Source: Escherichia phage IrisVonRoten
Length of the DNA: 64,000 bases
Sequence record: MZ501075
Reading direction: 5' to 3' (one strand)
The translations under genes were made by a program, and so were the position numbers. Below, piece by piece: positions 8,150 through 63,994 of the stretch. The notes below the pieces were generated by a model that did not search any database, had not been told where the DNA came from, and saw only the letters and a program-made list of their open reading frames with translations. The number at the start of each line of letters is the position of its first letter. The first letter of the stretch is position 1.

Positions 8150-8635
8150 ATGGATCACAGAACAAGTATAGCACAAGCTCTGGTTGATCGAATAGCCAAA
8201 CAAATGGATGGCTCTCAACCAGATGAATATTTTAATAACTTGTATGGAAACGTCTCACGTCAAACTTATAAGTTTGAGGAGATACGAGAGTTTCCTTATG
8301 TTGCAGTTCATATCGGAACTGAAACTGGGCAGTATCTTCCCTCAGGTCAACAGTGGATGTTTTTAGAACTTCCTATCCTGGTGTATGATAAAGAGAAAAC
8401 AGACATTCAAGAGCAACTTGAAAAACTCGTAGCGGATATAAAAACCGTTATTGACACAGGTGGAAATTTAGAATATACTGTTAGTAAACCTAATGGATCG
8501 ACCTTCCCATGTGAGGCGACTGATATGAGCATTACATCAGTTAGTACAGATGAGGGTCTACTGGCCCCATATGGTTTAGCAGAAATAAATGTAACAGTGA
8601 GGTATCAGCCTCCACGTAGGTCACTTCGCAGATAA
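8150..8635 (+). CDS. tail terminator protein (T5 p142-like)
   Basis: 161 aa; directly upstream of tail tube gene; synteny and size. Confidence 0.4.
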   Translation: MDHRTSIAQALVDRIAKQMDGSQPDEYFNNLYGNVSRQTYKFEEIREFPYVAVHIGTETGQYLPSGQQWMFLELPILVYDKEKTDIQEQLEKLVADIKTVIDTGGNLEYTVSKPNGSTFPCEATDMSITSVSTDEGLLAPYGLAEINVTVRYQPPRRSLRR

Positions 8636-16349: not shown

Positions 16350-16378
16350 TTGATAAAATTTTCTAATACTATTATAAT
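16350..16378 (+). promoter_or_regulatory. sigma70-like promoter upstream of Dit gene
   Basis: TTGATA-N17-TATAAT followed by ATTAAAGAGGAGAAATTAACTATG, which matches the T5-derived RBS used in pQE expression vectors as I recall it. Confidence 0.5.
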
Positions 16379-24742: not shown

Positions 24743-25017
24743 GAGATATAATCCTAAAATTCACGGATAAATCAGCATATAAAGATTTTCTCGTTCAAAT
24801 AGGGTGGGATACTAATGAAACTTTGCAAAATCAAATAATGCTTGATGAAATTGGCTATACTTATACTGAAATCTCTCCGCTAGGAGATGAGGAGCCTAGA
24901 TGCACCCGTAATGAAGGGTATTATGTTAATGTAAGGATTCTTGATGAATCCTTTACTTACGAATACTTCGAGCCTTTTATAGTTCAGCTAGAACAGCCTC
25001 TTAGAGTATGGGCATAA
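24739..25017 (+). CDS. small hypothetical protein between fibre genes
   Basis: 92-aa ORF with ATGA overlap with LtfA-like stop. Confidence 0.3.
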   Translation: MRDIILKFTDKSAYKDFLVQIGWDTNETLQNQIMLDEIGYTYTEISPLGDEEPRCTRNEGYYVNVRILDESFTYEYFEPFIVQLEQPLRVWA

Positions 25018-25026
25018 GGTTTTATA

Positions 25027-26751
25027 ATGGTAACTAAAACAGTAATTCCTACGGATATTACAAAACTTAAAAATGAGTCACTTAATAAAAATAATAACCT
25101 GAGTGACTTAGCAGACCGTGCAGCAGCGTGGCTAAACGTGCGTCCTATTGGGTCCACCCCTCTTGCGGGGGATCCTGTTGGGGACTATGATGCCGCAACT
25201 AAACGTTGGGTAGAGAATAAGATTAACACTGGTACAGTTGGACCCACTATGAGTGGTGTTATGAACTACGGTGTTGGTGATTTTCACCTCCGAGATAGTC
25301 GTGCGTATATTCAACCATACGAAGTCGTTTCTGACGGACAGCTTCTTAATAGGGCTGACTGGCCTGAACTTTGGGCGTATGCACAAATGGTTGGGGCTAT
25401 AGATGATTCAGTTTGGTTAGGAGATAAATTCCAGCGCGGTAAGTACTCATCAGGGAATGGAACAACAACCTTTCGTGTTCCAGATAGAAATGGTGTGCAG
25501 TCTGGTTCAGTATATGGTCTATTTGCTCGTGGTGATGGTGGTCAAAGTAGTATTAATGGAGCAATTTATGAATCTGGTGCACCTAATATAGTTTTTACTT
25601 CTCCGCATACTATGGTAACGCTTGCTTCAGCAGCTGGCCAAGTTGCAACAATTGGAGCGTTACAATCAACCACGTCAAGTGATGCTCCGGCACCAGTAGG
25701 TTCTGGTGGTAGGTACATTAATACAAATTTTGATGCGTCAAGATGTAGTTCTATATACGGGAGAACGGTATCCGAACTACGCCCTAATAACTTCATTGGC
25801 GTCTGGGTAATCCGTGCTTCTGGTGGGTTCGTGGCTGCAAAGACTTCGTGGAGTGTTATTAGTGGTGATGCTGTCAAACCTAATACTGGTACTACTGTTT
25901 ATGGCGGGAGTGTACTATCTGAGTATAAAGTAGGTACTAGTAGTGAGGCTGTAAGTACACTACGAGCTAAAGCTACTATTGGTGGCACCTACTCTACTGA
26001 ACTACTAATAGACAATAAATCTACCGGTAAATCGAATTCCGCCCAGCTTGTAGATAATGGAGATTTTGTAACGGATCGTTTTAAAGCTAGATTAGTTACT
26101 GGCATGGCGTGGTCTCAGACTGGCTGGGTACAAGGTACTCTTTCTCAGAACGAGGTCAATATAGGTAGTACATTTAACTTTAATAGTATATTGAGCGGTT
26201 CCCAGTCTTCTTCCGCAGGGTATAAGACATCTGCACATTTTGGATTAATTCATAATGACTTAGGCTCATTTGCAGATTCTTGTTGGCAGGTAGCGGGAGA
26301 TGATGATAATAAATTTGGTGTGCGTTTAAAAATTCAGCCGAATAATAATAGTATTTATTTTTATTCTTGGTGGCCCGGTGCTTCAGCAACCTATACTTTG
26401 CAATTAAATGCTGTATCTGATTCTCGCTTAAAGCATGATATTAAGGCTATAGACGCAACTAAGTCCATCGAGGTATTAAAAGGATTAGAATTCCAATCCT
26501 TTGTATATAATAACGATGAAAAATCTCGTGTCCGACGTGGGGTTATTGCTCAGCAAGTAGAGACTATAGAACCACTTTATGTAAAAACTAGAAGATTTTA
26601 TAATGATGACGGAATAGAGCAGGAGCAAAAGGAATTAGATACAACTCCAATGCTTCTTGACACTATGCATGTTGTGCAAGATCTTATTAAACGGATTGAA
26701 GATCTGGAGAAAGAGCTTGAGCAATTAAAGGTACAATTAGTATCACAATAA
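25027..26751 (+). CDS. distal tail fibre protein (LtfB-like) with tail-collar-type domain and C-terminal intramolecular chaperone
   Basis: 574 aa; PELWAYAQMVG..TTFRVPDRNG resembles phage tail collar domain; C-terminal SRLKHDIKAID..LEFQSFVYNNDE..RRGVIAQQVE resembles S74-type self-cleaving chaperone of fibre/endosialidase proteins. Confidence 0.65.
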   Translation: MVTKTVIPTDITKLKNESLNKNNNLSDLADRAAAWLNVRPIGSTPLAGDPVGDYDAATKRWVENKINTGTVGPTMSGVMNYGVGDFHLRDSRAYIQPYEVVSDGQLLNRADWPELWAYAQMVGAIDDSVWLGDKFQRGKYSSGNGTTTFRVPDRNGVQSGSVYGLFARGDGGQSSINGAIYESGAPNIVFTSPHTMVTLASAAGQVATIGALQSTTSSDAPAPVGSGGRYINTNFDASRCSSIYGRTVSELRPNNFIGVWVIRASGGFVAAKTSWSVISGDAVKPNTGTTVYGGSVLSEYKVGTSSEAVSTLRAKATIGGTYSTELLIDNKSTGKSNSAQLVDNGDFVTDRFKARLVTGMAWSQTGWVQGTLSQNEVNIGSTFNFNSILSGSQSSSAGYKTSAHFGLIHNDLGSFADSCWQVAGDDDNKFGVRLKIQPNNNSIYFYSWWPGASATYTLQLNAVSDSRLKHDIKAIDATKSIEVLKGLEFQSFVYNNDEKSRVRRGVIAQQVETIEPLYVKTRRFYNDDGIEQEQKELDTTPMLLDTMHVVQDLIKRIEDLEKELEQLKVQLVSQ

Positions 26752-26756
26752 AAGAA

Positions 26757-26790
26757 AACCCCAGTGGACAAAATCCACTGGGGTTTATTA
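26757..26790. terminator. bidirectional rho-independent terminator between convergent late (+) and early (-) modules
   Basis: CCCCAGTGGA-CAAAA-TCCACTGGGG with T-rich tract on + and A-rich (T-rich on -) tract upstream. Confidence 0.7.
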
Positions 26791-26807
26791 TTTATTTTAT
26801 ATGTAGA

Positions 26808-32603: not shown

Positions 32604-32633
32604 ATTATACTAGATTTCGAGAGAATTTAGCAA
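32604..32633 (-). promoter_or_regulatory. T5 early-type promoter (copy 1 of tandem pair)
   Basis: minus-sense TTGCTA-N18-TATAAT followed by ATATACATAAATTCGAGGAGAAA. Confidence 0.5.
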
Positions 32634-32704: not shown

Positions 32705-32733
32705 ATTATACATCATTTATAAGCTGTTGCCAA
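32705..32733 (-). promoter_or_regulatory. T5 early-type promoter (copy 2 of tandem pair)
   Basis: minus-sense TTGGCA-N17-TATAAT followed by ATATACATAAATTTGAGAGAGAAAG; overlaps 3' end of helicase gene. Confidence 0.4.
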
Positions 32734-37184: not shown

Positions 37185-37214
37185 ATTATACCAAATCTTT
37201 AAGCGATTCAGCAA
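37185..37214 (-). promoter_or_regulatory. T5 early-type promoter upstream of DNA polymerase gene
   Basis: minus-sense TTGCTG-N18-TATAAT, overlapping 3' end of primase gene. Confidence 0.45.
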
Positions 37215-41197: not shown

Positions 41198-41226
41198 ATT
41201 ATAGCAAGTATTTAAGCATTTAGCAA
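41198..41226 (-). promoter_or_regulatory. T5 early-type promoter inside the ligase split
   Basis: minus-sense TTGCTA-N17-TATAAT followed by RBS AAGGAAG and the C-terminal ligase subunit start. Confidence 0.5.
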
Positions 41227-41369
41227 CTACAATTTTAACTAACTTTGCTTACCCTCGCCATAACTTTCTATCCCTCAACTGAATGATAATAGTATATACC
41301 TAAGCGGCGAAAATGTCAATAACCACTTTATAATTCCGATATGGTAGATGGGTAGCAAAGGGTTGTGTA

Positions 41370-42344
41370 TTAATCGTATACTCGCTCTACTATGCACGGG
41401 ATTACACCACCAGCACGAATCACTCGAATCTGGCAACCGATCTCTAGATCAAGAGAGTTAATATAATCAACGTTATTAAGAGTCGCTTTAACAATTGTAG
41501 CATCATCAATAATTACCGGTTCGAAATAACCAACTGGAGTTACTTTACCAGAAGCCCCTACCTGCCATTCAACTTTAGTAAGAGTTGTAATCTCGCCTTC
41601 TTCATCCTCTTTAATAGCGAATGCTCCACGAGGGAATTTATTAGTCCAGCCTTCGCGGAAGAATTTGTTGTTGTCATTAATACGAACAACTTTACCGTCC
41701 GTTGGAATCCATTTAAAGAAGGAACGCACATTAACAACTGTTAAGAAGTTCTCATTCTCTAGCCAAAGCATATCTTTTAAATATGCTTCTGTAATACCCA
41801 CAGATTCAGCAGAACATTGGATACCATAAGCAACAAAGATTAAACCACCTTCCCCAATACGTTGTACGAAATCATCGCTATCTTTGAGGTTAATAGCACC
41901 AGAGGCAAAGTTACGTTTATTTTCTACTTCTTTTGTAATTAGAACTTCACCAGTGATTTGAGTAGGTACTTTTTGGGAAATCTTTTTAGGAATGTTCAGC
42001 AATCTTACGTTGCTTGTGACATCATTCCCCAGAATACCATTACCACGAGTTAGTGCTTGAACAAATTCACCGTTAATATATAACAGAGAAATTGCACAAC
42101 CATCTAACTTATCGGTTTCCACCTGACCTAAAGGATTGAAGGGTGGTTTATCACCACGGTTATAGTAAACTTTCTGTAAAGAATACATACGATATAGATG
42201 TGGAATATCACCCTTAGGCCCGATCTCTTCCTCTAACGGGAAGCGTTTTACCAGGCAATCATACTCCTCATCAGAGATTAAAGACATGCCTTGATAATAT
42301 GCTTCTTGACAACGCTTAATAAAGCCTTTTACATTATTCATCAT
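41370..42344 (-). CDS. NAD-dependent DNA ligase, N-terminal adenylation subunit
   Basis: 324 aa; adenylation motif TDKLDGCAISL (KxDG), OB-fold region; ends with stop 199 bp upstream of the C-terminal subunit start. Confidence 0.7.
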   Translation of the reverse strand: MMNNVKGFIKRCQEAYYQGMSLISDEEYDCLVKRFPLEEEIGPKGDIPHLYRMYSLQKVYYNRGDKPPFNPLGQVETDKLDGCAISLLYINGEFVQALTRGNGILGNDVTSNVRLLNIPKKISQKVPTQITGEVLITKEVENKRNFASGAINLKDSDDFVQRIGEGGLIFVAYGIQCSAESVGITEAYLKDMLWLENENFLTVVNVRSFFKWIPTDGKVVRINDNNKFFREGWTNKFPRGAFAIKEDEEGEITTLTKVEWQVGASGKVTPVGYFEPVIIDDATIVKATLNNVDYINSLDLEIGCQIRVIRAGGVIPCIVERVYD

Positions 42345-42552
42345 CGGCGATTTCCATCTTGAGTTCTTTATTATATTGTGTAACCATATCCATCAAATCA
42401 GCAGATTCTTTCAGAAACGCATCTTTGTACACCTTTTGATTTACTGTGCCTATGTTATCCTGATAATTAATGCGTGCTGTGGAAAGTAGATTAAGTTTTG
42501 CTTGAATCTTGGGAAGTGTTACTGTCATTGCCATGATTGATCCTCTTATCAA
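42334..42552 (-). CDS. hypothetical small protein
   Basis: 72-aa ORF with RBS AGAGGA and own upstream promoter. Confidence 0.3.
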   Translation of the reverse strand: MIRGSIMAMTVTLPKIQAKLNLLSTARINYQDNIGTVNQKVYKDAFLKESADLMDMVTQYNKELKMEIADDE

Positions 42553-42563
42553 TTTATATAAAT

Positions 42564-42592
42564 ATTATATAACAAAACTGAGTTGAAAGCAA
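42564..42592 (-). promoter_or_regulatory. T5 early-type promoter
   Basis: minus-sense TTGCTT-N17-TATAAT. Confidence 0.5.
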
Positions 42593-42619
42593 ATACATTT
42601 ATAAAGAAAAAGCCAAGAA

Positions 42620-42928
42620 CTAGGCATTCTTGGCTTTGAGTTCTTCAGCTCGTTTCTGTACTTCATGTAAAACCTCAGATTCGCTAAGAATCTGTGTAAA
42701 CGCATAGAAAAGCTGTGATGTTGTTTCTAGGGTGTAAGGAAAAGAGAAGCCAGATTTCGTTGGAAACCATTCATCATTAATATCAAGAAGCCAGTAACGA
42801 ATACCCATGTATAGATTCCCACGAAATTCAGATACTGTTAATCTTACTTGTTCCCCCTCCTTCTCCCAAAGTATGATGGACTGGTCATCAACGTGTCCTT
42901 CATAGTTTTGATTTACCTGTTCGCTCAT
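42620..42928 (-). CDS. PC4-like ssDNA-binding protein
   Basis: 102 aa; IILWEKEGEQVRLTVSEFRGNLYMGIRYW fits the PC4/YdbC fold pattern; a PC4-like protein has been described in T5 (recalled, not verified here). Confidence 0.45.
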   Translation of the reverse strand: MSEQVNQNYEGHVDDQSIILWEKEGEQVRLTVSEFRGNLYMGIRYWLLDINDEWFPTKSGFSFPYTLETTSQLFYAFTQILSESEVLHEVQKRAEELKAKNA

Positions 42929-43780: not shown

Positions 43781-43809
43781 ATTATATCAAGAATTGTAGG
43801 ATTAAGCAA
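43781..43809 (-). promoter_or_regulatory. T5 early-type promoter
   Basis: minus-sense TTGCTT-N17-TATAAT. Confidence 0.5.
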
Positions 43810-43829: not shown

Positions 43830-44102
43830 CTACACCAGGCCAACAGCGAGCATATCATCAATGCTGGCAGCCTCCCAATCGTCCGCAATAGCTTCACATA
43901 CTGTTAATGAAACAACTTCGCTATACGGATAGTTACCAGCTACCCAAGTATGCTGAGTAGCTACATCCGAGTCAGCGTCTAAAGTTAGTAACACTAAGCC
44001 ATTATTGTCATTATCCCAGCTTCTACGATATAGAGTTTTTACTTCTCCATCTTTAAGTAAATCAGTTAGTTTACTCACGGCGTTTTCCTTTTTCTTTATC
44101 AA
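43830..44102 (-). CDS. hypothetical protein
   Basis: 90-aa ORF. Confidence 0.3.
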   Translation of the reverse strand: MIKKKENAVSKLTDLLKDGEVKTLYRRSWDNDNNGLVLLTLDADSDVATQHTWVAGNYPYSEVVSLTVCEAIADDWEAASIDDMLAVGLV

Positions 44103-44775
44103 GTTTCAAGGCAGCCTTAACAGCTTCGTTAATCAACGTAATAACTTCTTCACGAGTCCACTTGTACCCCAGGGATTTTACGTCAACCCCTAACTTTTCC
44201 AGATGTTTAACAGAAGCCAGCTCGTAATTCATATAATGAACGTTCTGTTGTTTGCCTTCTGATAGAAGCCATACACGGTAACAACCAACAGGATTATCCA
44301 TTGCTTTTTTGATTTCACCGATACACTGGTATCCAGGAACCCAAACAAGCTCGCCTATCTCAAATTCTTCTGCTACAGCATCGTCAGGAATAATTGGAGG
44401 ATTCAATGGGTCTACAATATCGTTCAAACGAAGTAGAGCACCATATCGTTCCAGGACAGATTTAACCATTGCTACAGAGCGATAATTACGATCAGCAATC
44501 TCTTCAAAAGAATCACCAGATAAATACTGTTCAATAACGTTAGCTAACTCGATGCCTTCAATGAGTGTACCACGTTTCTTTTTCTTCATCTCGGCAACTT
44601 GAATTTGGCGATCTTGCCATTCTTCAATCATCCTTTCCATAGTTGGATTGGATGATACGCCGAGCATTTCGCATGCTGCTTTCTTAGTACCACCGTTTTC
44701 CAGATGCTCTATAACTTTTTTAAAGACTTCATCCGGGATTTCATGGATATGTTTCTTTCTGCGAGAACCAGCCAT
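44071..44775 (-). CDS. putative HTH DNA-binding regulator
   Basis: 234 aa; N-terminal HTH-like segment GTKKAACEMLGVSSNPTMERMIEEW; first gene downstream of PN25-like promoter. Confidence 0.35.
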   Translation of the reverse strand: MAGSRRKKHIHEIPDEVFKKVIEHLENGGTKKAACEMLGVSSNPTMERMIEEWQDRQIQVAEMKKKKRGTLIEGIELANVIEQYLSGDSFEEIADRNYRSVAMVKSVLERYGALLRLNDIVDPLNPPIIPDDAVAEEFEIGELVWVPGYQCIGEIKKAMDNPVGCYRVWLLSEGKQQNVHYMNYELASVKHLEKLGVDVKSLGYKWTREEVITLINEAVKAALKLDKEKGKRRE

Positions 44776-44806
44776 ATTTAAACTCCTCTCTCAAATTTAT
44801 GAATCT

Positions 44807-44835
44807 ATTATACAGAAAAATTTTCCTGAAAGCAA
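44807..44835 (-). promoter_or_regulatory. T5 PN25-like early promoter
   Basis: minus-sense AAAATTTATTTGCTTTCAGGAAAATTTTTCTGTATAATAGATTCATAAATTTGAGAGAGGAG matches the T5 PN25 promoter sequence as I recall it; TTGCTT-N17-TATAAT. Confidence 0.75.
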
Positions 44836-44843
44836 ATAAATTT

Positions 44844-45077
44844 TTACGATTCCTTGAGCAAAGAAGAAAGTTCAGCATATACTTTATCTAACTCAAACCC
44901 TATGCGAAGAGATACGTTAGTCCTCCGTTGTTTAAGTAACCACTCGGATATGTTAGGGATACCAGCTAATCTATGTGGTACCACTCTACATAGCTTTTCC
45001 GAAGTATCATAAACAGGAACTTTACGTTCTTTTACTGGAAACTTCCTTGTTTCCCATTTTTTATTCTTCACTGTCAT
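44844..45077 (-). CDS. hypothetical small protein
   Basis: ~77 aa from ATG 45077 with RBS GGAGAGAT (track ORF extends to 45185 inside the neighbouring gene). Confidence 0.3.
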   Translation of the reverse strand: MTVKNKKWETRKFPVKERKVPVYDTSEKLCRVVPHRLAGIPNISEWLLKQRRTNVSLRIGFELDKVYAELSSLLKES

Positions 45078-45591
45078 ATCTCTCCGAGGGATTAAATTCA
45101 CCAAACAATTCTTTAACTCCCCTAAGGTATAGCTGATGGGCTTCTTCCGGGGTATCTCGTCTACCAAAAATATGCTGCTTTCCATCGCAGTAAGCGTAGG
45201 CCATATACCTATTACCTCGTTTTACAACTCCAGTGAATCCGGTAGAATTAGTAGAACACTTCTTATTCTTTCCATTTTCGGAATAGGTAGCCTTACGTAA
45301 ATTATCCCACAAGTTGTTTAAACTATCACCGTCTTTATGGTCGATAGTTTTATCTCCAGGATCTTCGCCTGTCTTTATAAACCAGATTATTCTATGGGCT
45401 AAGTAAGCTGTCCGCTCCCCATTTATCGTAAACTCTAACTGTCTCCCAGTTTTCATTTTGGAGCCCGCTACCTTTCCCTTCCTTGGGCCAGATAACCAAA
45501 TTAAGTCCCCAGTACTTTCGTCATACCTAAGCTTTTCTAGGATAAATTCCATAGGAGGCATTGGTTTATGCATCTTCATTAGTTGCTCCAA
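45061..45591 (-). CDS. HNH homing endonuclease with AP2-like DNA-binding domain
   Basis: 176 aa; HNH segment IDHKDGDSLNNLWDNLR; AP2-like segment STGFTGVVKRGNRYMAYAY. Confidence 0.55.
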   Translation of the reverse strand: MEQLMKMHKPMPPMEFILEKLRYDESTGDLIWLSGPRKGKVAGSKMKTGRQLEFTINGERTAYLAHRIIWFIKTGEDPGDKTIDHKDGDSLNNLWDNLRKATYSENGKNKKCSTNSTGFTGVVKRGNRYMAYAYCDGKQHIFGRRDTPEEAHQLYLRGVKELFGEFNPSERYDSEE

Positions 45592-48352
45592 GTTCGGACA
45601 TTACTTCTTCTGCCATAGCTTTCTCCTCCTCTGTCATGAATTTGAAAGGAATTGGCATACACTCTATTTTACAATAGGTTCTGTACCAGTCTACGATATT
45701 CTCCGTGTTCATATCTTTACCAATACCCATCATACCAAGATACATTCTAGCATATTTTGGGTTCGCACTCTGACCTGTTTTAAGGAAGAAGTCCTTCTTC
45801 TTACCTTTCAGAGCTTCTATGAATGGTTTAATGGTCACATTTGAACATTTCTTAATATCTTCCCAGAACATCTCGTGCATCTTATGGAAGAATGCAGCTC
45901 GATCATTCGGCTTATCTTTGATATATTGTTCAACATGCTCAACTGTTACATCTTTAATAGACTCAAGATGATAGTAGCGAACAAGAAGTAGTTTAGCTTC
46001 ATACGCATCCACATGACGTGGAGCACAATAATCCGGAGTTGAATGTAGAATAGCTTTGATTCGCTCTTCTGTGTACTCTTTACCAGCACCTTCAATAGTT
46101 CCCCAGCTTTCGCTGAAAATATCAATAGTTGCACCCTGATCAAGCAAGTAATAACGTAAGGTACTAGTATAGTTTCTAGATTCCAGCTCCCTGCGACGTG
46201 CATATAATTGCTGTGCTAACTCCAGCCAACCCTCATCAATATTATATTGTTCAGAACCTGCAGAGAATCCACTCGTAGATTTATCAATAAAATAATAGAT
46301 ATTCTGAGCACCACGGTCGCGCCTGATTGCTTGAAAACGCATGTTTGGCGCTTGATTACTAGTTCTCGTAATAACAAATACGTTATCGAAGTAGTTGAAG
46401 TCAACGCCACTCGTTACGGATGGACTACATAATAAGCAATCAATTTGTTGATCAATTAGCTCATTAGTTGTGTAATCCAGAATACGTCTAATATCCACAT
46501 CAGATGTAGAGTTTGAATGGATTTCCTTAACTAACGCACCAGTATTGCGACGTAGTGCCATACCCTTCTCATTAAGCTCATCAGGCCCACAATCAGATAC
46601 TAGAATAGATTTCTCACCCATCTCTAGAGAAGTCTGAAGTGCAACCCAAATACTGGACTCATCAGGGAACTCATAAGCATGAGCTTTTGACAGCATTTTA
46701 CGGTGATGATTGTAAAATGCTACTGGTTTATCGAACTCAATCAAAGAACCATATGCTTCAATTGTTTCAGCACTAATATCACCATCTGATAGTATAATGA
46801 TTTTTGCAGTTGCAAGAATATCACGAAGAACCTGAATACACTCACGACGTTGCTTAACAACCGGGGCGAATAATAGGTCATTCATTACTGCATCACATTC
46901 ATCTATAAAGATTGCATCAATTTGACCAATAAAACTCTTAAACTTATGCAAAGAGTGAATGGTTGTGGACATACGGTCAATAGCACCACGCTTGAAATTA
47001 AGCATATCTACAGACTTATCATATTGTCCTGCACTAAATTTCTTAGCATTTGAAGATACCAGTGCTCTAGTGTTGGTAATTGCTAAGAAATTACCTTTAA
47101 TAACTCCTGAATCCAGCCAACGAACAACAGCTGTTGTTTTACCCGTGCCTAGACTTGCTTTTACAAAAGTCATATAGCCTTCTGGTGGTACAGTATTTAA
47201 TTTCAAGAAGTTGTCGGTCTCTAGTGAATTAGTTTCTAGCTTTTTAAGGGGGATACCTTTTAATATTTCAGGGATCTCACGCTTAGAGTTATTCACAAAG
47301 GCTTTTAATGCCTGCTTCCGTCCGTTATTGAAATAATCCTGAATATTACGGCTATTATCTTTAGTTGCAATATATTCTGATAAAGCTGGGCGGATTTCTT
47401 TTTCTAGCCAACCAAAATCTACCCCATCCTCTAACGCTCGGTGATATAGCTTTGGAATAATACGTAAGTATACCCCATCATCAGCCTCTTCTAGCTCACT
47501 GATAGTTTCCTCTACTTTATCAGAGGCAGCTTTTTTACCTTTAATTTGATCGAGTAAAGAGTAGAATTCCTCTTTAAACTCTCCTCTAGTTGTTTCATAG
47601 TCAACTAGATTATTAGGTAAATTTACTTTTGAGCCTTTAACAAATACCAGACGTGAAGCACCCTCCGCTTTAAACGGATCAACTATACCATCAGTAAATA
47701 AAGGATCTGCAAAATAGTGGAGCTGTACGGAAGAGTAATAAGCTAAGTCGGCAATATCAAAGCCATACTTTTGTCTACTACTTTCGTTGATAGATGTAAA
47801 TAAGAACTTGATCTGACCCTGTGTAACTTTAACATTAGATTCTAGTATTAAGTGCATTCGGATACCTGGTTTTAGTCCAGCCGAAGACGATGCATGAGCA
47901 ATAAACCCTGCATCAAGAGGAAACATATCCTCACTAATACTATTCAACATCCTAATAATAAGACGCGCCATGCCAACAAGATCAAACTTGTTACAACCTC
48001 CTGTATCTACAATACCATCCACATCCATTGCGATTATATGACTTGGATTAGATACATTAAAGTTGCCCTTCTTACGTCGCACATTATTTTTGGGTGCAAG
48101 ACATCGACCTCGCACCGCAACGATATGAGGGTCAGACGTTAAACGTCTCATAAGAGGAAGCATTTCTACTAGGGTTTGAGGATCAACTTCGTCAATTACA
48201 TCAAACTTGAAGGGCATTGAAGCTGGTTTACCTTCAGGATGCTTTGAGGAAAATCTTTTAGCAAAAAGATAATCTTCTGCTTTAACTTCTCGCCAATTGC
48301 CTGTGGCTAAATCGCGATGAAATCCTGCATGACCTTGTAGGATTGAAAACAC
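45566..48352 (-). CDS. large replication protein: N-terminal primase-like (AEP DxD) region plus Walker A/B ATPase/helicase
   Basis: Walker A ASLGTGKTT, Walker B FIDECDAV; N-terminal IIAMDVDG (DxD); start uncertain, proposed GTG at 48352 preceded by AGGAG (track ORF begins at 48430). Confidence 0.5.
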   Translation of the reverse strand: MFSILQGHAGFHRDLATGNWREVKAEDYLFAKRFSSKHPEGKPASMPFKFDVIDEVDPQTLVEMLPLMRRLTSDPHIVAVRGRCLAPKNNVRRKKGNFNVSNPSHIIAMDVDGIVDTGGCNKFDLVGMARLIIRMLNSISEDMFPLDAGFIAHASSSAGLKPGIRMHLILESNVKVTQGQIKFLFTSINESSRQKYGFDIADLAYYSSVQLHYFADPLFTDGIVDPFKAEGASRLVFVKGSKVNLPNNLVDYETTRGEFKEEFYSLLDQIKGKKAASDKVEETISELEEADDGVYLRIIPKLYHRALEDGVDFGWLEKEIRPALSEYIATKDNSRNIQDYFNNGRKQALKAFVNNSKREIPEILKGIPLKKLETNSLETDNFLKLNTVPPEGYMTFVKASLGTGKTTAVVRWLDSGVIKGNFLAITNTRALVSSNAKKFSAGQYDKSVDMLNFKRGAIDRMSTTIHSLHKFKSFIGQIDAIFIDECDAVMNDLLFAPVVKQRRECIQVLRDILATAKIIILSDGDISAETIEAYGSLIEFDKPVAFYNHHRKMLSKAHAYEFPDESSIWVALQTSLEMGEKSILVSDCGPDELNEKGMALRRNTGALVKEIHSNSTSDVDIRRILDYTTNELIDQQIDCLLCSPSVTSGVDFNYFDNVFVITRTSNQAPNMRFQAIRRDRGAQNIYYFIDKSTSGFSAGSEQYNIDEGWLELAQQLYARRRELESRNYTSTLRYYLLDQGATIDIFSESWGTIEGAGKEYTEERIKAILHSTPDYCAPRHVDAYEAKLLLVRYYHLESIKDVTVEHVEQYIKDKPNDRAAFFHKMHEMFWEDIKKCSNVTIKPFIEALKGKKKDFFLKTGQSANPKYARMYLGMMGIGKDMNTENIVDWYRTYCKIECMPIPFKFMTEEEKAMAEEVMSELGATNEDA

Positions 48353-48853
48353 AACAATACTCCTGTGTTGGAAATGAAATAAGTTTTCTTTAGGACTATT
48401 CAGAAAGAATAGAACAACTGTTACTGTCAATTTCTCAACAAATTAATTGCAAATACTGAAGTGGGGTGGCAACTTCCACTTTCACGCTGCGCTGCTGCCT
48501 CATTATATCGCACAAATCCTTGAGGATGGCCGCTAAGCCAGATTTGCTCACCTAATGCTTCATATACTAGCTCATACTAGATGCAATATAACTTACAGAA
48601 TCACGTCTCGGTAGTTTTTCACTCCTCCCATCTCACTTCACAACCACCTCATACTAGGTTGCTTCGAGGCCTTACCAGGGTTCCTATGGGACGCAGATCG
48701 CTAAGTATTCTATTAACTATTTGTTTAAAAACTAACACGTAACAGTTAAAACAACCCTTAATGGGGCAGCCTAACTGTTCCGTATCGCGGATTGTAAACA
48801 AGAAAAATTAGTAAAACCAATTTTTACTAATGTCTCTCAATTCAATATAAATA

Positions 48854-48881
48854 TTATATCAAGATTTTGAGTATCATGCAA
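48854..48881 (-). promoter_or_regulatory. T5 early-type promoter preceding an ORF-free ~500-nt region
   Basis: minus-sense TTGCAT-N16-TATAAT with conserved downstream ATTTATATTGAATTGAGAGA. Confidence 0.4.
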
Positions 48882-48918
48882 GTAAAATTTTCCGGATGGT
48901 GCTATCAGTGTCTTTGAG

Positions 48919-48945
48919 TACAGAGAAAACCGAGCCAAAATGACT
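48919..48945 (-). terminator. putative terminator (minus strand)
   Basis: minus-sense AACCGAG-9nt-CTCGGTT followed by TTCTCTG. Confidence 0.4.
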
Positions 48946-48957
48946 CGGTTATACGGA

Positions 48958-49152
48958 TTAATCATAAAAAAGACCACGAATAGTATTAGCAAATTTAAGT
49001 ATAATAGCGCGGTTTGAGCTACTTAACTTTTTAATATCGAAAGTGGGATCAGTCAAATATCTCGCCATAAATTTTACTTGTTTAGCGGAAAGTTGACCCT
49101 TATTCCACTTTTTAATTTTACCATAACATACCCAATATTCTTTATTCATCAT
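48958..49152 (-). CDS. hypothetical small protein
   Basis: 64-aa ORF. Confidence 0.3.
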   Translation of the reverse strand: MMNKEYWVCYGKIKKWNKGQLSAKQVKFMARYLTDPTFDIKKLSSSNRAIILKFANTIRGLFYD

Positions 49153-51830: not shown

Positions 51831-51895
51831 TCTTGTTCCTCAAACATTTCAATTTCTGCATTAGCAATAGAAAGGGCGGGCTCAGATAAGCACAA

Positions 51896-52039
51896 TCACG
51901 CCCTAAGATCAATCTTCTCTTCGTCCATCCAAGTATTTACTAAACATAATTTAGTTATACCCTCACGGAGAATGGAACCATATGCCCCAGAATCCATAAT
52001 AAAATAGATACGTTCTTTATCTACCTTGTGAACTCTCAT
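51896..52039 (-). CDS. small ORF (47 aa) directly behind an early promoter, not in the ORF track
   Basis: hand translation MRVHKVDKERIYFIMDSGAYGSILREGITKLCLVNTWMDEEKIDLRA; strong RBS GAGAGGAGAAAG; coordinates approximate to within a few nt. Confidence 0.35.
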   Translation of the reverse strand: MRVHKVDKERIYFIMDSGAYGSILREGITKLCLVNTWMDEEKIDLRA

Positions 52040-52067
52040 ATCTTTCTCCTCTCAAATTTATAAATCT

Positions 52068-52096
52068 ATTATATATAAATTTTTGGCTGAAAGCAA
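52068..52096 (-). promoter_or_regulatory. T5 early-type promoter
   Basis: minus-sense TTGCTT-N17-TATAAT followed by AGATTTATAAATTTGAGAGGAGA. Confidence 0.55.
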
Positions 52097-52138
52097 ATAA
52101 AATAAAAGCCAGGTCGACTAGCAACCCGGCTGATTAGC

Positions 52139-54013: not shown

Positions 54014-54043
54014 TATACTCTCCTTCTCTAACTAAGACTACTA

Positions 54044-54072
54044 TTATAGCTTATTCAAGGGCAAATGTCAAT
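54044..54072 (-). promoter_or_regulatory. consensus sigma70 promoter for nrdD
   Basis: minus-sense TTGACA-N17-TATAAT, then RBS GAGAAGGAGAG before the nrdD ATG. Confidence 0.6.
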
Positions 54073-54140
54073 ATAATTTTTCTCTTAGATATTGTATTTT
54101 GATCTGTGCTAAAAGGTTAGCAAATTGTTAAAAAATTTAT

Positions 54141-54169
54141 TTGCTATTTTGTACTTAAAATAGTATAAT
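54141..54169 (+). promoter_or_regulatory. T5 early-type promoter (upstream member of tandem pair)
   Basis: TTGCTA-N17-TATAAT. Confidence 0.45.
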
Positions 54170-54281
54170 CACGCGCCTATGTACGCGGTATAAAATGATT
54201 ATCTAATACCATACATTTCCCATTAAAAGCAAGCAAATTTTTTATTTAAATGCAATATCATAGGCTTATTTAAAATTGTAG

Positions 54282-54310
54282 TTGCTTTTTACTGTATATA
54301 CTGGTATAAT
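54282..54310 (+). promoter_or_regulatory. T5 early-type promoter for phoH
   Basis: TTGCTT-N17-TATAAT followed by GTAAGTTGATAAACAAG leader and RBS TAGGAG. Confidence 0.55.
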
Positions 54311-54383
54311 ATATTTGTAAGTTGATAAACAAGATCTTTTTGTTGATCCTCTGTTAGCGAAGTACACTATAGGAGTGTTATTT

Positions 54384-55335: not shown

Positions 55336-55476
55336 GTGGCCAAAAACTAGACTGACAACACAGAAGGCCTGGGTATGAAAATACTCGGGCCTTTTCTATC
55401 AGAAAATTTTATTTGCCAAATGACTGAGAATAAAGTAGAATATTCCTTAAATCCTGATAACTATAAAAAGGAAAAC

Positions 55477-57810: not shown

Positions 57811-57820
57811 TAAAAGACAA

Positions 57821-57846
57821 GGAGATCTTCGGGTCTCCTTTTTCTT
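57821..57846 (+). terminator. rho-independent terminator after nrdA
   Basis: GGAGAUC-UUCG-GGUCUCC (one G-U pair) followed by TTTTTCTTT. Confidence 0.7.
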
Positions 57847-57857
57847 TGAAATTTTAC

Positions 57858-57886
57858 TTGCTAATCGCTACCTGATTTGCTATAAT
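57858..57886 (+). promoter_or_regulatory. T5 early-type promoter for nrdB
   Basis: TTGCTA-N17-TATAAT, RBS GAGAAAGAGGAAA. Confidence 0.55.
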
Positions 57887-57917
57887 ATTCCTGAAATAGT
57901 GAGAAAGAGGAAAATCA

Positions 57918-60437: not shown

Positions 60438-60462
60438 ATAGCCCTTCGGGGCTATTATATTT
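60438..60462 (+). terminator. rho-independent terminator after thymidylate synthase
   Basis: ATAGCCC-TTCG-GGGCTAT followed by TATATTT. Confidence 0.5.
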
Positions 60463-60471
60463 AAATTTCAT

Positions 60472-60500
60472 TTGCTTATTTAGTGAAATTTAAATATAAT
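60472..60500 (+). promoter_or_regulatory. T5 early-type promoter
   Basis: TTGCTT-N17-TATAAT, RBS TTGGAGG. Confidence 0.55.
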
Positions 60501-60525
60501 ATATTTTATAAATTGGAGGTATACA

Positions 60526-60807
60526 ATGATTTCAGCCAAAGAAGCCCAAGAACTTGCAGGATTAACAGAAGTACCTGCATTTCTAAAGTTTATAGAAGAA
60601 AAGATTGTAGAAGCTGCTAAGTCTGGAAATACAGAAGTAATTATTCGAGATAATCCTTACGCTAGGTGGCTATATAATCCTAGAGAAATGCCAGGAGCCG
60701 CTAAATCGGTACTAAAAACCTTATCGGATAAGGGGTATCATCTCTCACAATACTACCGAGAAGCCACCTTTGTAGACATGGGTCTTAAAATTAGTTGGGA
60801 GGTATAA
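60526..60807 (+). CDS. hypothetical protein
   Basis: 93-aa ORF. Confidence 0.3.
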   Translation: MISAKEAQELAGLTEVPAFLKFIEEKIVEAAKSGNTEVIIRDNPYARWLYNPREMPGAAKSVLKTLSDKGYHLSQYYREATFVDMGLKISWEV

Positions 60808-61301: not shown

Positions 61302-61330
61302 TCTTGCTTAAAGCCCTCTAATTTAGTATA
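61302..61330 (+). promoter_or_regulatory. T5 early-type promoter flanked by an inverted repeat
   Basis: TTGCTT-N17-TATAAT; AAAGCCCTC (61308-61316) and GAGGGCTTT (61349-61357) form an inverted repeat around the -10 and RBS. Confidence 0.5.
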
Positions 61331-61359
61331 ATATTCGTATTGAAAGTGAGGAGGGCTTT

Positions 61360-61644
61360 ATGCGAATTTATAACTCAAATTCATTAGGATTTAAACCGTT
61401 GAGAAAACGTGCACAATCACCTCGTCAAATAAGAAAGGCTAATATTGGTGAGCCAGAAACACGTCTTCCACCTCCTCCAGAACAACGTTTAGTTTATCTG
61501 GATGAAGAATTAGCTGAACGCGAAGGAAAAGCTCAAGAAGAGATTGAGCGTAAGAAAATGTGTACTGCTCCAGCCTACTCCAAAGGGGCTTATCAGTATA
61601 TCTATACAGCCGAAGAGGCTAAAGATGCGGGGCGTAAAAAATGA
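61360..61644 (+). CDS. hypothetical protein (basic, Pro-rich centre)
   Basis: 94-aa ORF with RBS GAGGAGGG. Confidence 0.3.
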   Translation: MRIYNSNSLGFKPLRKRAQSPRQIRKANIGEPETRLPPPPEQRLVYLDEELAEREGKAQEEIERKKMCTAPAYSKGAYQYIYTAEEAKDAGRKK

Positions 61645-62090
61645 AGATTACTGAATTTAAAGGTGCTTATAGTTTCTTATCTAACTTTTATTTATCACCA
61701 ATTACTTTCGAATATCTAAATGAAATATGGCATGCTGATACTGTAGAACATGCTTTTCAGGCTATGAAATCCGACCAAAAAGATGATGTAGCTCATGTAC
61801 TACGCTCCCTAAATGCAGGAGTTGCTAAACGTAGAGGACGTAAATTAACTCTACGCTCTGACTGGGATAAGGTAAAAGATGATGTAATGCTAGAGCTTTT
61901 ACGGTTAAAGTTTGCAATCCCTGATTTGAGAGATAAACTGTTAGCAACAGAAAATGCAACTTTGATTGAAGGAAATACCTGGGGAGATACATATTGGGGT
62001 GTTTGCCGAGGCATCGGGGATAATACTTTAGGAGTTCTTTTGATGCAGGTAAGGTCTGAAATTAAAAGAAGCTTACAGTTAATAAATTAA
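61641..62090 (+). CDS. NADAR/YbiA-family protein (DUF1768-like)
   Basis: 149 aa; FLSNFY, EHAFQAMK, LLATENATLIEGNTWGDTYWG, NTLGVLLMQVR align with YbiA-type motifs. Confidence 0.6.
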   Translation: MKITEFKGAYSFLSNFYLSPITFEYLNEIWHADTVEHAFQAMKSDQKDDVAHVLRSLNAGVAKRRGRKLTLRSDWDKVKDDVMLELLRLKFAIPDLRDKLLATENATLIEGNTWGDTYWGVCRGIGDNTLGVLLMQVRSEIKRSLQLIN

Positions 62091-62098
62091 AAATTCAT

Positions 62099-62127
62099 TT
62101 GCTAAACGCTTCAAATTCTCGTATAAT
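62099..62127 (+). promoter_or_regulatory. T5 early-type promoter
   Basis: TTGCTA-N17-TATAAT followed by leader ATAAATTGATAAACAA and RBS AAGGAAA. Confidence 0.55.
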
Positions 62128-62681: not shown

Positions 62682-62740
62682 TAGATAGGGGCGAAAGCCC
62701 CTACAGTCAACTAATTCTCTAACCAATCCAGGATATTTTT

Positions 62741-62956
62741 ATGTTCTCTAAGAAACCACGTTCCGTTACTGAAATCGTTGCTTCCTTTACTACTATTACT
62801 GATGAACTTCAAGCTCGTATTGAGGCTGATCAGAAAATTGCTGCTGATATTCAGAAACAGCAGGAAGAACTCGCTCTGAAGTTGGCTGAAACCAACAAGA
62901 GCGAAAAATCTGCCCAAACTATTATGGAAAATATCCTTAAACTGCTTGGCAAGTAA
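62741..62956 (+). CDS. small coiled-coil protein
   Basis: 71-aa ORF, helical heptad-like composition; followed by hairpin. Confidence 0.3.
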   Translation: MFSKKPRSVTEIVASFTTITDELQARIEADQKIAADIQKQQEELALKLAETNKSEKSAQTIMENILKLLGK

Positions 62957-62964
62957 TTTAAATC

Positions 62965-63965: not shown

Positions 63966-63994
63966 TTGCTTCCAGCTTCAAAATTCTGTATAAT
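63966..63994 (+). promoter_or_regulatory. T5 early-type promoter at window end
   Basis: TTGCTT-N17-TATAAT. Confidence 0.5.

Follow-up and report, generated by a model that had tools for sequence, protein, structure and literature searches.

A counterpart of the T5 promoter PN25 and its TTGCTW-N17-TATAAT promoter family in the early region of Escherichia phage IrisVonRoten

The T5 promoter PN25 (N25), on which Gentz and Bujard reportedly published in 1985, has been under study since the 1980s. The 'T5 promoter' of pQE-type vectors derives from it, and it is a standard template for work on promoter escape. The early promoters of phage T4 are likewise sigma-70 promoters with extended conservation that includes an upstream A-tract. 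They too serve the unmodified host polymerase, are conserved beyond the hexamers and occur in many copies per genome, but their consensus is a different one, TTGCTW and its own initial transcribed sequence being those of T5, and the likeness is by description only. N25 is built of TTGctt, a 17-bp spacer and TATAAT. Its UP element has its centre near -49, its discriminator is 6 bp long with G at -5, and its transcribed sequence is optimised for escape; its open complex is extremely stable, and promoter escape is the limiting step (PMC12464699). Lambda PR resembles N25 in its near-consensus hexamers, 17-nt spacer, UP element and 6-nt discriminator with G at -5 (PMC12464699), whereas its sequence is unrelated and it is controlled by a repressor, an operator not being found in the T5 family. 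In T5 itself, all gene classes are transcribed by the host sigma-70 polymerase, the early promoters have an ATATT discriminator in common, and of the 19 promoters with in vitro activity only 11 could be seen by primer extension in infected cells (PMC7472727); some copies may therefore be inactive in vivo. The T5 early set (PN26, PK28a, PH207, P31A/B, and T5P22-38 of AY587007) stands in one-to-one orthology with the family described below, whereas the adjoining genes differ at several sites, where small ORFs are inserted or HNH endonuclease genes are absent. The finding, a PN25 counterpart together with the annotated T5 early-promoter family, is in this sense already known, correct but ordinary.

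The stretch of DNA analysed, hereafter the window, comprises 64,000 nucleotides of the phage (MZ501075) with a G+C content of about 39%. In alignment it corresponds to the T5 reference reverse-complemented, running from about 108.4 kb to 44.4 kb. Positions 1-22474 match the T5 late (virion) region at 88% identity, the L-shaped tail-fibre region (22.5-26.8 kb) is unaligned to T5, and 26.8-64 kb match the T5 early region at 93-98% identity with small indels in between. A 601-nt query around the PN25 site matched 465 phage records, nearly all of them T5-like (Salmonella, Escherichia, Klebsiella), T5 itself at 96% identity. The nearest relative changes from segment to segment, and the source phage is therefore, as judged from these alignments, a mosaic Tequintavirus. 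The earlier note had read the PN25 match as confirming the phage lineage, and this stands as far as a T5-like phage is concerned, but not for T5 itself, to which the pieces are 88-98% identical. The switch of gene strand is visible both in GC skew and in the ORFs, and it matches the switch in promoter orientation.

On the minus strand, 44807-44835 read TTGCTTTCAGGAAAATTTTTCTGTATAAT. The whole module (44776..44860, minus strand) consists of an A-tract/UP-like region, the -35 TTGCTT (44830-44835), the 17-nt spacer TCAGGAAAATTTTTCTG, the -10 TATAAT (44807-44812), the discriminator AGATTC, and the initial transcribed sequence ATAAATTTGAGAGAGGAGTT, which holds the Shine-Dalgarno; the D2 start codon (44773-44775, minus strand) follows directly. 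Placed after the N25 literature (PMC12464699), the predicted +1 is the A at 44800 (minus strand), and the D2-like ORF (44071-44775) begins 25 nt past it. When aligned with the T5 feature 'promoter P-N 25' (NC_005859 63043-63117), all 65 bases of 44781-44845 on the minus strand agree (about -45 to +20), and the identity carries on through the D2 start codon. The 'putative early promoter T5P33' of AY587007, which lies at the same place as PN25, is identical at 64 of 64 bases, and the PN25 sequence printed as a primer in PMC4447248 agrees with that of T5. The position is conserved as well: the promoter lies between hegI/T5.110 and D2, downstream of obp/hegI and colinear with T5. Thus, the claim that the minus strand at 44.8 kb reproduces PN25 is borne out by direct alignment with the published promoter, which is a full match across the core with mismatches confined to the sequence upstream of -45.

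There, T5 has CAAAGAATCATAAAAAA and the window CAAGGAATCGTAAAAA, two differences that amount to one change from A in T5 to G in the window and an A5 tract instead of the A6 of T5. They fall within the described UP element, and the UP-element region is therefore not identical to that of T5, carrying a substitution and an A-tract shorter by one base. The A5 form is the commoner one: six of the eight relatives with a PN25 orthologue align unshifted, and T5 and Shivani carry the longer form. From the sequences compared, the difference reads as allelic variation and is no argument against orthology; it could alter the strength of PN25. The core is invariant in a diverged relative, and it is the UP-like region that varies. 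Taken together, 44807-44835 on the minus strand are almost certainly the orthologue of T5 PN25 in a Tequintavirus and one of some 16 copies of the T5 early promoter in the window. By analogy with T5, the first transcribed base would be the A of ATAAATTT, and E. coli sigma-70 polymerase would be highly active on the promoter.

Across the whole window, TTGCTW-N17-TATAAT occurs in 12 exact copies, as against 0.06 expected, and none of 100 shuffles reaches 12, so the recurrence of the pattern reported earlier is real and far beyond chance. All 12 lie within 41-64 kb and are oriented like their genes, on the minus strand at 41-52 kb and on the plus strand from 54.1 kb on, and all 12 map to promoters annotated in NC_005859 and/or AY587007, as do P31A, P31B, the pol promoter and T5P32, four copies with a looser match. 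The correspondence between family sites and T5 promoters is one-to-one, with order and orientation kept and identities mostly of 96-100% over 50-75 nt, the most diverged being 60472 (T5P27) at 86%. The family sites span 32.6-64 kb, which is the early region by synteny with T5, and a weight-matrix scan of the late region (1-26.8 kb) returned no family site. When one mismatch is allowed, T5P32 at 48853, the late PG25 at 16350 and a hit at 24420 are added, the last lying inside coding sequence and probably due to chance; allowing a spacer of 18 nt brings in P31B and the pol promoter. The family in the window thus numbers about 16, 12 by exact pattern and four on flank conservation. The figure of at least 17 further sites given in the earlier note is too high, the literal pattern yielding 11 further ones; reaching at least 17 requires orthologues that deviate by two to three positions, namely P31A, the nrdD promoter, T5P29 and PK28b. 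These same four, being off TTGCTW or TATAAT, are missed by the motif, and the promoter map that it provides falls short of near-complete.

Given a genome this rich in A/T, the matches might be chance products with no function. Loose sigma-70 criteria are indeed met as often in the window as in shuffled sequence, and 24420 is probably a case of this kind; on the other side stand the 12 exact copies, their strictly co-oriented and intergenic placement, flanks that are conserved independently of the hexamers, and hexamers that are held in relatives while spacer and flanks drift. The enrichment and conservation statistics refute a chance origin, the probability of which is negligible. Generic sigma-70 scans found 54, 60 and 44 sites as against 50, 59.7 and 58.4 in shuffled sequence, which makes them useless as a mapping tool here and, being at chance level, places the signal specifically in the TTGCTW variant. 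TTGCTW-N17-TATAAT taken together with its flanks, by comparison, finds early promoters of the T5 type and gives hardly any false positives.

The minus-strand sites of the early region can be followed from the lowest coordinate upward. P31B (TTGCTA-N18-TATAAT, 32604..32633) is identical to its T5 counterpart at 75 of 75 bases, and P31A (TTGGCA-N17-TATAAT, 32705..32733) is 98.7% identical and scores 35.4 with the hexamers masked, the null maximum being 17.9. The promoter of pol, the DNA polymerase gene (TTGCTG-N18-TATAAT, 37185..37214), is identical to that of T5 at 75 of 75 bases and also stays above the null with masked hexamers. The orthologues of 'P-K 28a' (TTGCTA-N17-TATAAT, 41198..41226), which lies upstream of ligB, and of 'P-K 28b' (TTGACA-N17-TATACT, 41291..41319) are each identical to T5 at 75 of 75 bases; the latter is a sigma-70 promoter outside the TTGCTW family and is not recovered by the family weight matrix. 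The T5P35 orthologue (42564..42592) has the exact pattern and follows a hairpin at 42609-42637. A 66-aa ORF (start 42534) stands between this promoter and ligA; in T5, the promoter is upstream of ligA. The orthologue of 'promoter P-N 26' (TTGCTT-N17-TATAAT, 43781..43809), upstream of D3, is again identical at 75 of 75 bases. Beyond PN25, the T5P32 orthologue (48853..48881) belongs to the family with one pattern mismatch, its -35 being TTGCAT; it is 96% identical to T5, scores above the null with masked hexamers, and is preceded by a terminator-like hairpin at 48928-48950. The T5P31 orthologue (52068..52096), with the exact pattern, follows the nrdD terminator (52107-52131). The nrdD promoter (54043..54071) has the consensus hexamers TTGACA-N17-TATAAT, is 98.6% identical to the annotated T5 nrdD promoter and is divergent from the adjoining plus-strand promoters; its matrix score of 18.4, against a null maximum of 15.8, makes it a borderline member of the family.

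On the plus strand, the first site is a family core, TTGCTA-N17-TATAAT, at 54141..54169, which corresponds to an unnamed T5 feature and lies 140 nt upstream of the next promoter. It is without the conserved downstream stretch, and no orthologue was found in SP3, Shivani or the Klebsiella phage. There follow the T5P30 orthologue upstream of phoH (54282..54310), which has the exact pattern and TTGATAAACAA in its leader, and the T5P29 orthologue upstream of nrdA (TTGCCA-N17-TAGAAT, 55413..55441), which is annotated only in AY587007 and is a weak, promoter-like site with a matrix score under the null. Three further exact family members are the orthologues of T5P28 (57858..57886), behind a terminator at 57819-57840, of T5P27 (60472..60500), and of T5P26 (61304..61332), a promoter annotated in T5. 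In the window, nrdB comes directly after the promoter at 57858; in T5, an HNH endonuclease gene lies in between. The promoter at 60472 sits in a perfect inverted repeat of 18 nt, in which 60453-60470 pair with 60484-60501. The 'P-H 207' orthologue (TTGCTA-N17-TATAAT, 62099..62127) is identical at 66 of 66 bases and also has TTGATAAACAA in its leader. The last exact site (63966..63994), which the end of the window cuts just past the -10, is the orthologue of an unnamed T5 promoter (NC_005859 44393-44467) and is identical to it at 52 of 52 bases. In the late region, plus-strand orthologues of two late T5 promoters are present, 'P-J 5' (TTGACA-N17-TATACT, 8451..8479) with 75 of 75 bases identical and 'P-G 25' (TTGATA-N17-TATAAT, 16350..16378) with 98.7% identity; the latter scores under the null with the family matrix and is outside the early family.

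The family is real beyond its hexamers by three independent tests, namely a weight matrix, leave-one-out scoring and a repeat search. The exact sites were used to build a weight matrix of two blocks, which recovered the family, including the four looser sites on their flanks alone: P31A, P31B, the pol promoter and T5P32 beat every shuffle with the hexamers masked, and PK28b, T5P29, PG25 and PJ5 fail the same matrix. In leave-one-out scoring, which considered only the 22 nt upstream of the -35 and the 24 nt downstream of the -10, 13 of 15 sites reached z values of 4.4-6.1, with T5P26 at 3.4 and the site at 54141 at 2.0. In an unsupervised search, the four largest direct-repeat families of the window proved to be these promoters. 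The upstream flank has the consensus TTAAAATTTTA and the downstream one AT.T.TATAAATT.GA.AG, covering -6 to +13; the features of the early class are accordingly present in the flanks, with an A-tract near -43, an A/T-rich discriminator of the ATATT type, and then ATAAATT.GA.

A conserved downstream leader had also been claimed, and here the looser AT.T.TATAAATT.GA stretch is real, but the literal strings are rare. AAATTTGAGAGGAGA has one exact copy (52045-52059, the leader of the promoter at 52068) and six hits with up to three mismatches, against 3.7 expected, and TTGATAAACAA has two exact copies, at 54322 and 62140. The literal strings, unenriched once mismatches are allowed, were dropped as a mark of the family in favour of the anchored consensus. 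The looser downstream motif TATAATANNNNNRTARRTTNGA has five hits against 0.05 expected, and AY587007 already has the leaders under the names 'repeat b' and 'repeat c', as dispersed repeats.

Conservation was assessed in nine relatives that are 65-97% identical to the window overall: T5, slur09, S131, SP3, Shivani, SP76, fuchur, IrmaTschudi and a Klebsiella phage. Across these, identity to the window is 100% for the TTGC of the -35, 96-100% for the -10 hexamer and 97-100% for the A-tract at -44 to -41, falling to about 91-92% for the discriminator and +1 to +14, 75-92% for the spacer and 60-80% for the outer flanks. The elements that contact polymerase are thus under purifying selection. The Klebsiella phage, with an overall identity of 65-72%, keeps the hexamers and the transcript start but has a scrambled spacer, and some of its 'orthologues' may be paralogous members of the family. 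Over the same 25 kb, each T5-like relative compared (Tequintavirus or Epseptimavirus) has 10-11 exact copies; T5 has 13, counted over a longer stretch of 40 kb, and the Klebsiella phage six.

Positions 4-5 of the -35, where C and T depart from the consensus, are also 87-100% conserved across the relatives, an observation that fits the proposal that TTGCTW, the AT.T.T discriminator and the ATAAATT.GA start are class signals for phage factors that switch early transcription off, in which case the sites would be more than simple constitutive promoters. Such a role would add to the main explanation and not replace it. The late promoters PG25 (TTGATA) and PJ5 (TTGACA/TATACT), like PK28b, are without the family flanks, and T5 early and late promoters differ mainly in the discriminator, where the phage protein gpT5.026 weakens polymerase contacts and aids the early-to-late changeover (PMC7472727). 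However, host polymerase by itself suffices for full activity of PN25 and its relatives, both in vitro and on plasmids (PMC4447248, PMC12464699), the effect of gpT5.026 in vitro is modest (PMC7472727), and no operator common to the family was found in the sequence. We therefore regard a class-signal function as possible but rather doubtful, and the family is read here primarily as a set of promoters for the host enzyme.

The genes that surround these promoters vary among relatives, and many breaks in homology adjoin a promoter module. In T4-type phages, cassettes of promoter and stem-loop have been proposed as points of recombination, and the promoter-plus-leader modules of the window could by the same token serve mainly to shuffle gene cassettes among T5-like phages, promoter activity being secondary. 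In keeping with this, breaks in homology are found at the 66-aa ORF just downstream of 42564, at a 93-aa ORF downstream of 60472 and at a 149-aa ORF just upstream of 62099; an HNH endonuclease gene is present or absent just downstream of 57858, and a segment just downstream of the promoter at 52068 (51840-52035) is replaced relative to relatives. The annotation of the leaders as dispersed repeats in AY587007 points the same way. Yet 10 of the 15 variable segments touch a gene boundary that bears a promoter, and about 60% would be expected to do so by chance, as estimated for a one-gene cassette with promoters at 13 of about 35 gene boundaries; there is no enrichment, and selection for expression would also place insertions just after promoters. 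No claim of recombination hot spots is made, and this account of the modules is improbable next to one in which they are promoters first. A comparison with the nine relatives made the replaced segment itself look unique, but further T5-like phages, VSe12 and EC100 among them, also carry it.

As for the layout of transcription, the distance from a family promoter to the next Shine-Dalgarno and start codon is in most cases 19-32 nt, and the downstream genes are co-oriented with the promoters; what looks like a conserved 'leader' is therefore the initial transcribed sequence joined to the ribosome-binding site. Five promoters have a terminator-like hairpin just ahead of them, those at 42564, 48853, 52068 and 57858, as given above, and that at 60472, where the hairpin lies at about 60440-60453. 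The minus-strand block ends at a bidirectional terminator (26756-26786), as annotated in T5. The small ORFs behind the promoters had been described as independently transcribed, which suits the five promoters that follow a terminator-like hairpin; the others are internal to operons and would add to read-through transcription.

Beside the observed identity, orthology, enrichment, co-orientation and conservation of elements, a working model may be set whose functional parts, namely the +1, recognition by sigma-70, the roles of the UP element and of escape, and the early timing, are carried over from T5. According to this model, unmodified host RNA polymerase with sigma-70 would read the family as strong promoters, each composed of a -35 TTGCTW, a spacer of 17 nt (sometimes 18) and a perfect -10 TATAAT. 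The A-tract around -44 to -41 would behave as an UP element, the +1 of the orthologues in the window would fall six or seven bases past the -10, and an A/T-rich discriminator, AT.T.T, would be followed by the purine-rich initial transcribed sequence ATAAATT.GA..., leading into the first gene's Shine-Dalgarno 19-32 nt downstream. The promoters would head, and lie within, two divergent early blocks, one on the minus strand from 54.0 to 26.8 kb and the other on the plus strand from 54.1 kb. For the annotation of a new T5-like genome such as this one, the family offers both a lineage marker and a ready map of transcription units.

Asking what each mapped promoter drives exposed one site that merits a separate look. 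The family promoter at 48853-48881 serves no ORF; it drives an untranslated leader of 494 nt (48353..48846, minus strand), which runs from the T5P32-type promoter to the GTG start (48350-48352) of obp, the gene for the replication-origin-binding protein. The sequence types have no conserved ORF in common within the leader: their longest ORFs in the sense direction are of 21-50 aa and lie at differing positions. The region is unannotated in both T5 records (NC_005859, AY587007). Rfam returned nothing at gathering thresholds for the whole window, and a search of 48250-49000 with E up to 10 gave best scores of 10-18 bits, far under the family thresholds. The architecture is conserved across T5-like phages with OBP identity down to 65%, and the length is kept at 468-494 nt, with 590 nt in SP3, owing to a duplication, and 613 nt in the most distant type. 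The sequence falls into at least six strongly diverged types, about 41% identical in the centre, in which islands are shared: GCUUAGCGGC in all six types and CAGUUAGGCUG in types A-E.

Several helices of the leader appear to be kept via many compensatory changes, among them the 5'-terminal hairpin, a long-range helix, and the helix capping the GCUUAGCGGC hairpin; a CAGU-UAG-GCUG hairpin is kept in types A-E and was not found in type F. In a two-type alignment of nine sequences, 17 of 82 predicted pairs show compensatory double changes, as against 1-5 in a 'slid' control with the 3' partners moved by 1-3 columns; 99.4% of cells are paired (slid, 36-51%), and the covariation score is 0.284 (slid, 0.04-0.09). 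In a five-type alignment of 12 sequences, compensatory double changes occur in 24 of 53 predicted pairs (slid, 5-13), 94.1% of cells are paired (slid, 40-48%), and the score is 0.413 (slid, 0.07-0.15). These counts are to be read with the structure having been predicted from the same alignments, with the centre of the multi-type alignment unreliable and with independent lineages few. In the antisense, only 79.8% of the same cells can pair, with 20% of cells G-U; therefore, the structure belongs to the transcript sense. Single-sequence folding energy is only mildly unusual (z = -1.85), so the case for a structured leader rests on covariation. We put at about even the chance that the T5P32-type promoter drives an untranslated, structured and hitherto undescribed RNA of some 470-610 nt into the obp gene, which may be a novelty beside the known promoter family.

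The RNA may act as a regulatory leader for obp, as an attenuator, or, at a replication origin, as primer or R-loop RNA. Its 5' hairpin is followed by a U-run and was called a terminator by the annotators of Shivani; therefore, attenuation is possible. Long-range masking of the obp Shine-Dalgarno, hinted at by the two-type alignment, was set aside, partition-function folding of eight types being inconsistent. No sequence-level map of T5 replication origins was found in the literature searched, and a promoter-driven structured RNA beside obp is therefore a concrete place to look. The leader has no recognisable sequence homology in the Serratia and Vibrio Demerecviridae. These phages have gene-poor gaps of 320-700 nt upstream of obp, located behind a promoter-like site and holding at most one small annotated ORF.

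The gene for the replication-origin-binding protein, obp, is preceded by an untranslated leader of approximately 470–610 nt that, judging from the sequence, is probably transcribed from a family-type promoter. In the window, this leader occupies 48353–48846 on the minus strand, behind such a promoter, and its counterparts in relatives (L handles) are located at L003:17094–17540, L008:8351–8840, L013:8901–9381, L059:5395–5875, L042:813–1280, and L094:~888–1500. The architecture is common to at least six diverged sequence types, across which compensatory base-pair changes are strong, the pairing is specific to the sense strand, and the hairpin motif GCUUAGCGGC is shared. No conserved ORF was found in the leader when the sequence types were compared, nor did it have a match in Rfam.

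The promoter at 60472–60500 (plus strand) is enclosed by a perfect 18-nt inverted repeat (60453–60470 with 60484–60501), with a GC-rich terminator hairpin immediately 5′ of it. When folded as RNA, 60440–60510 is predicted to form two neighbouring hairpins with a U-rich tail behind them, at −24.5 kcal/mol (z = −6.6). In T5, by comparison, the counterpart of the repeat is 16 nt long and is retained by way of a paired change from A/T to G/C. Here a terminator may overlap the promoter; alternatively, the segment may be an operator.

At the point where the two early blocks diverge (54020–54340), the minus-strand nrdD promoter (54043–54071), which has the full consensus, is placed back to back with plus-strand family promoters at 54141 and 54282, which form a tandem pair. 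The first of these, at 54141, is without the conserved transcribed sequence, and no orthologue of it was found in SP3, Shivani, or the Klebsiella phage.

In the plus-strand segment 16350–16411, the orthologue of the late promoter PG25 has ATTAAAGAGGAGAAATTAACTATGAGA downstream of it, and pQE30-type vectors carry the identical string as their ribosome-binding site and start (GAATTCATTAAAGAGGAGAAATTAACTATGAGAGGATCG; PMC11880969). Because the two strings coincide, the vector ribosome-binding site matches the natural leader of the gene behind PG25. The PN25 leader (window 44776–44786; L001:1730–1850 versus L002) differs by one T between the two T5 reference records, reading GGAGTTAAAT in NC_005859 and GGAGTTTAAAT in AY587007 as well as in the window.

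Small gene cassettes are variable between IrisVonRoten and T5 or other relatives, the variable segments being 42341–42543, 45081–45576, 57888–57893, 60508–60804, 61598–62089, and 62702–62960. Extra ORFs in the window encode 66 aa (behind promoter 42564), 93 aa (behind promoter 60472), 149 aa (upstream of PH207), and 71 aa (at 62741). T5 carries an HNH endonuclease gene behind the promoter at 57858 that the window lacks. The hegI-type HNH gene (45061–45591) is present in both the window and T5 and absent from most relatives. The tail-fibre region (22474–26807) gave no alignment with T5; it is matched best, at ~93%, by other phages (vB_Eco_mar004NP2 and SPLA5b are examples), a pattern in line with the exchange of host-range modules.
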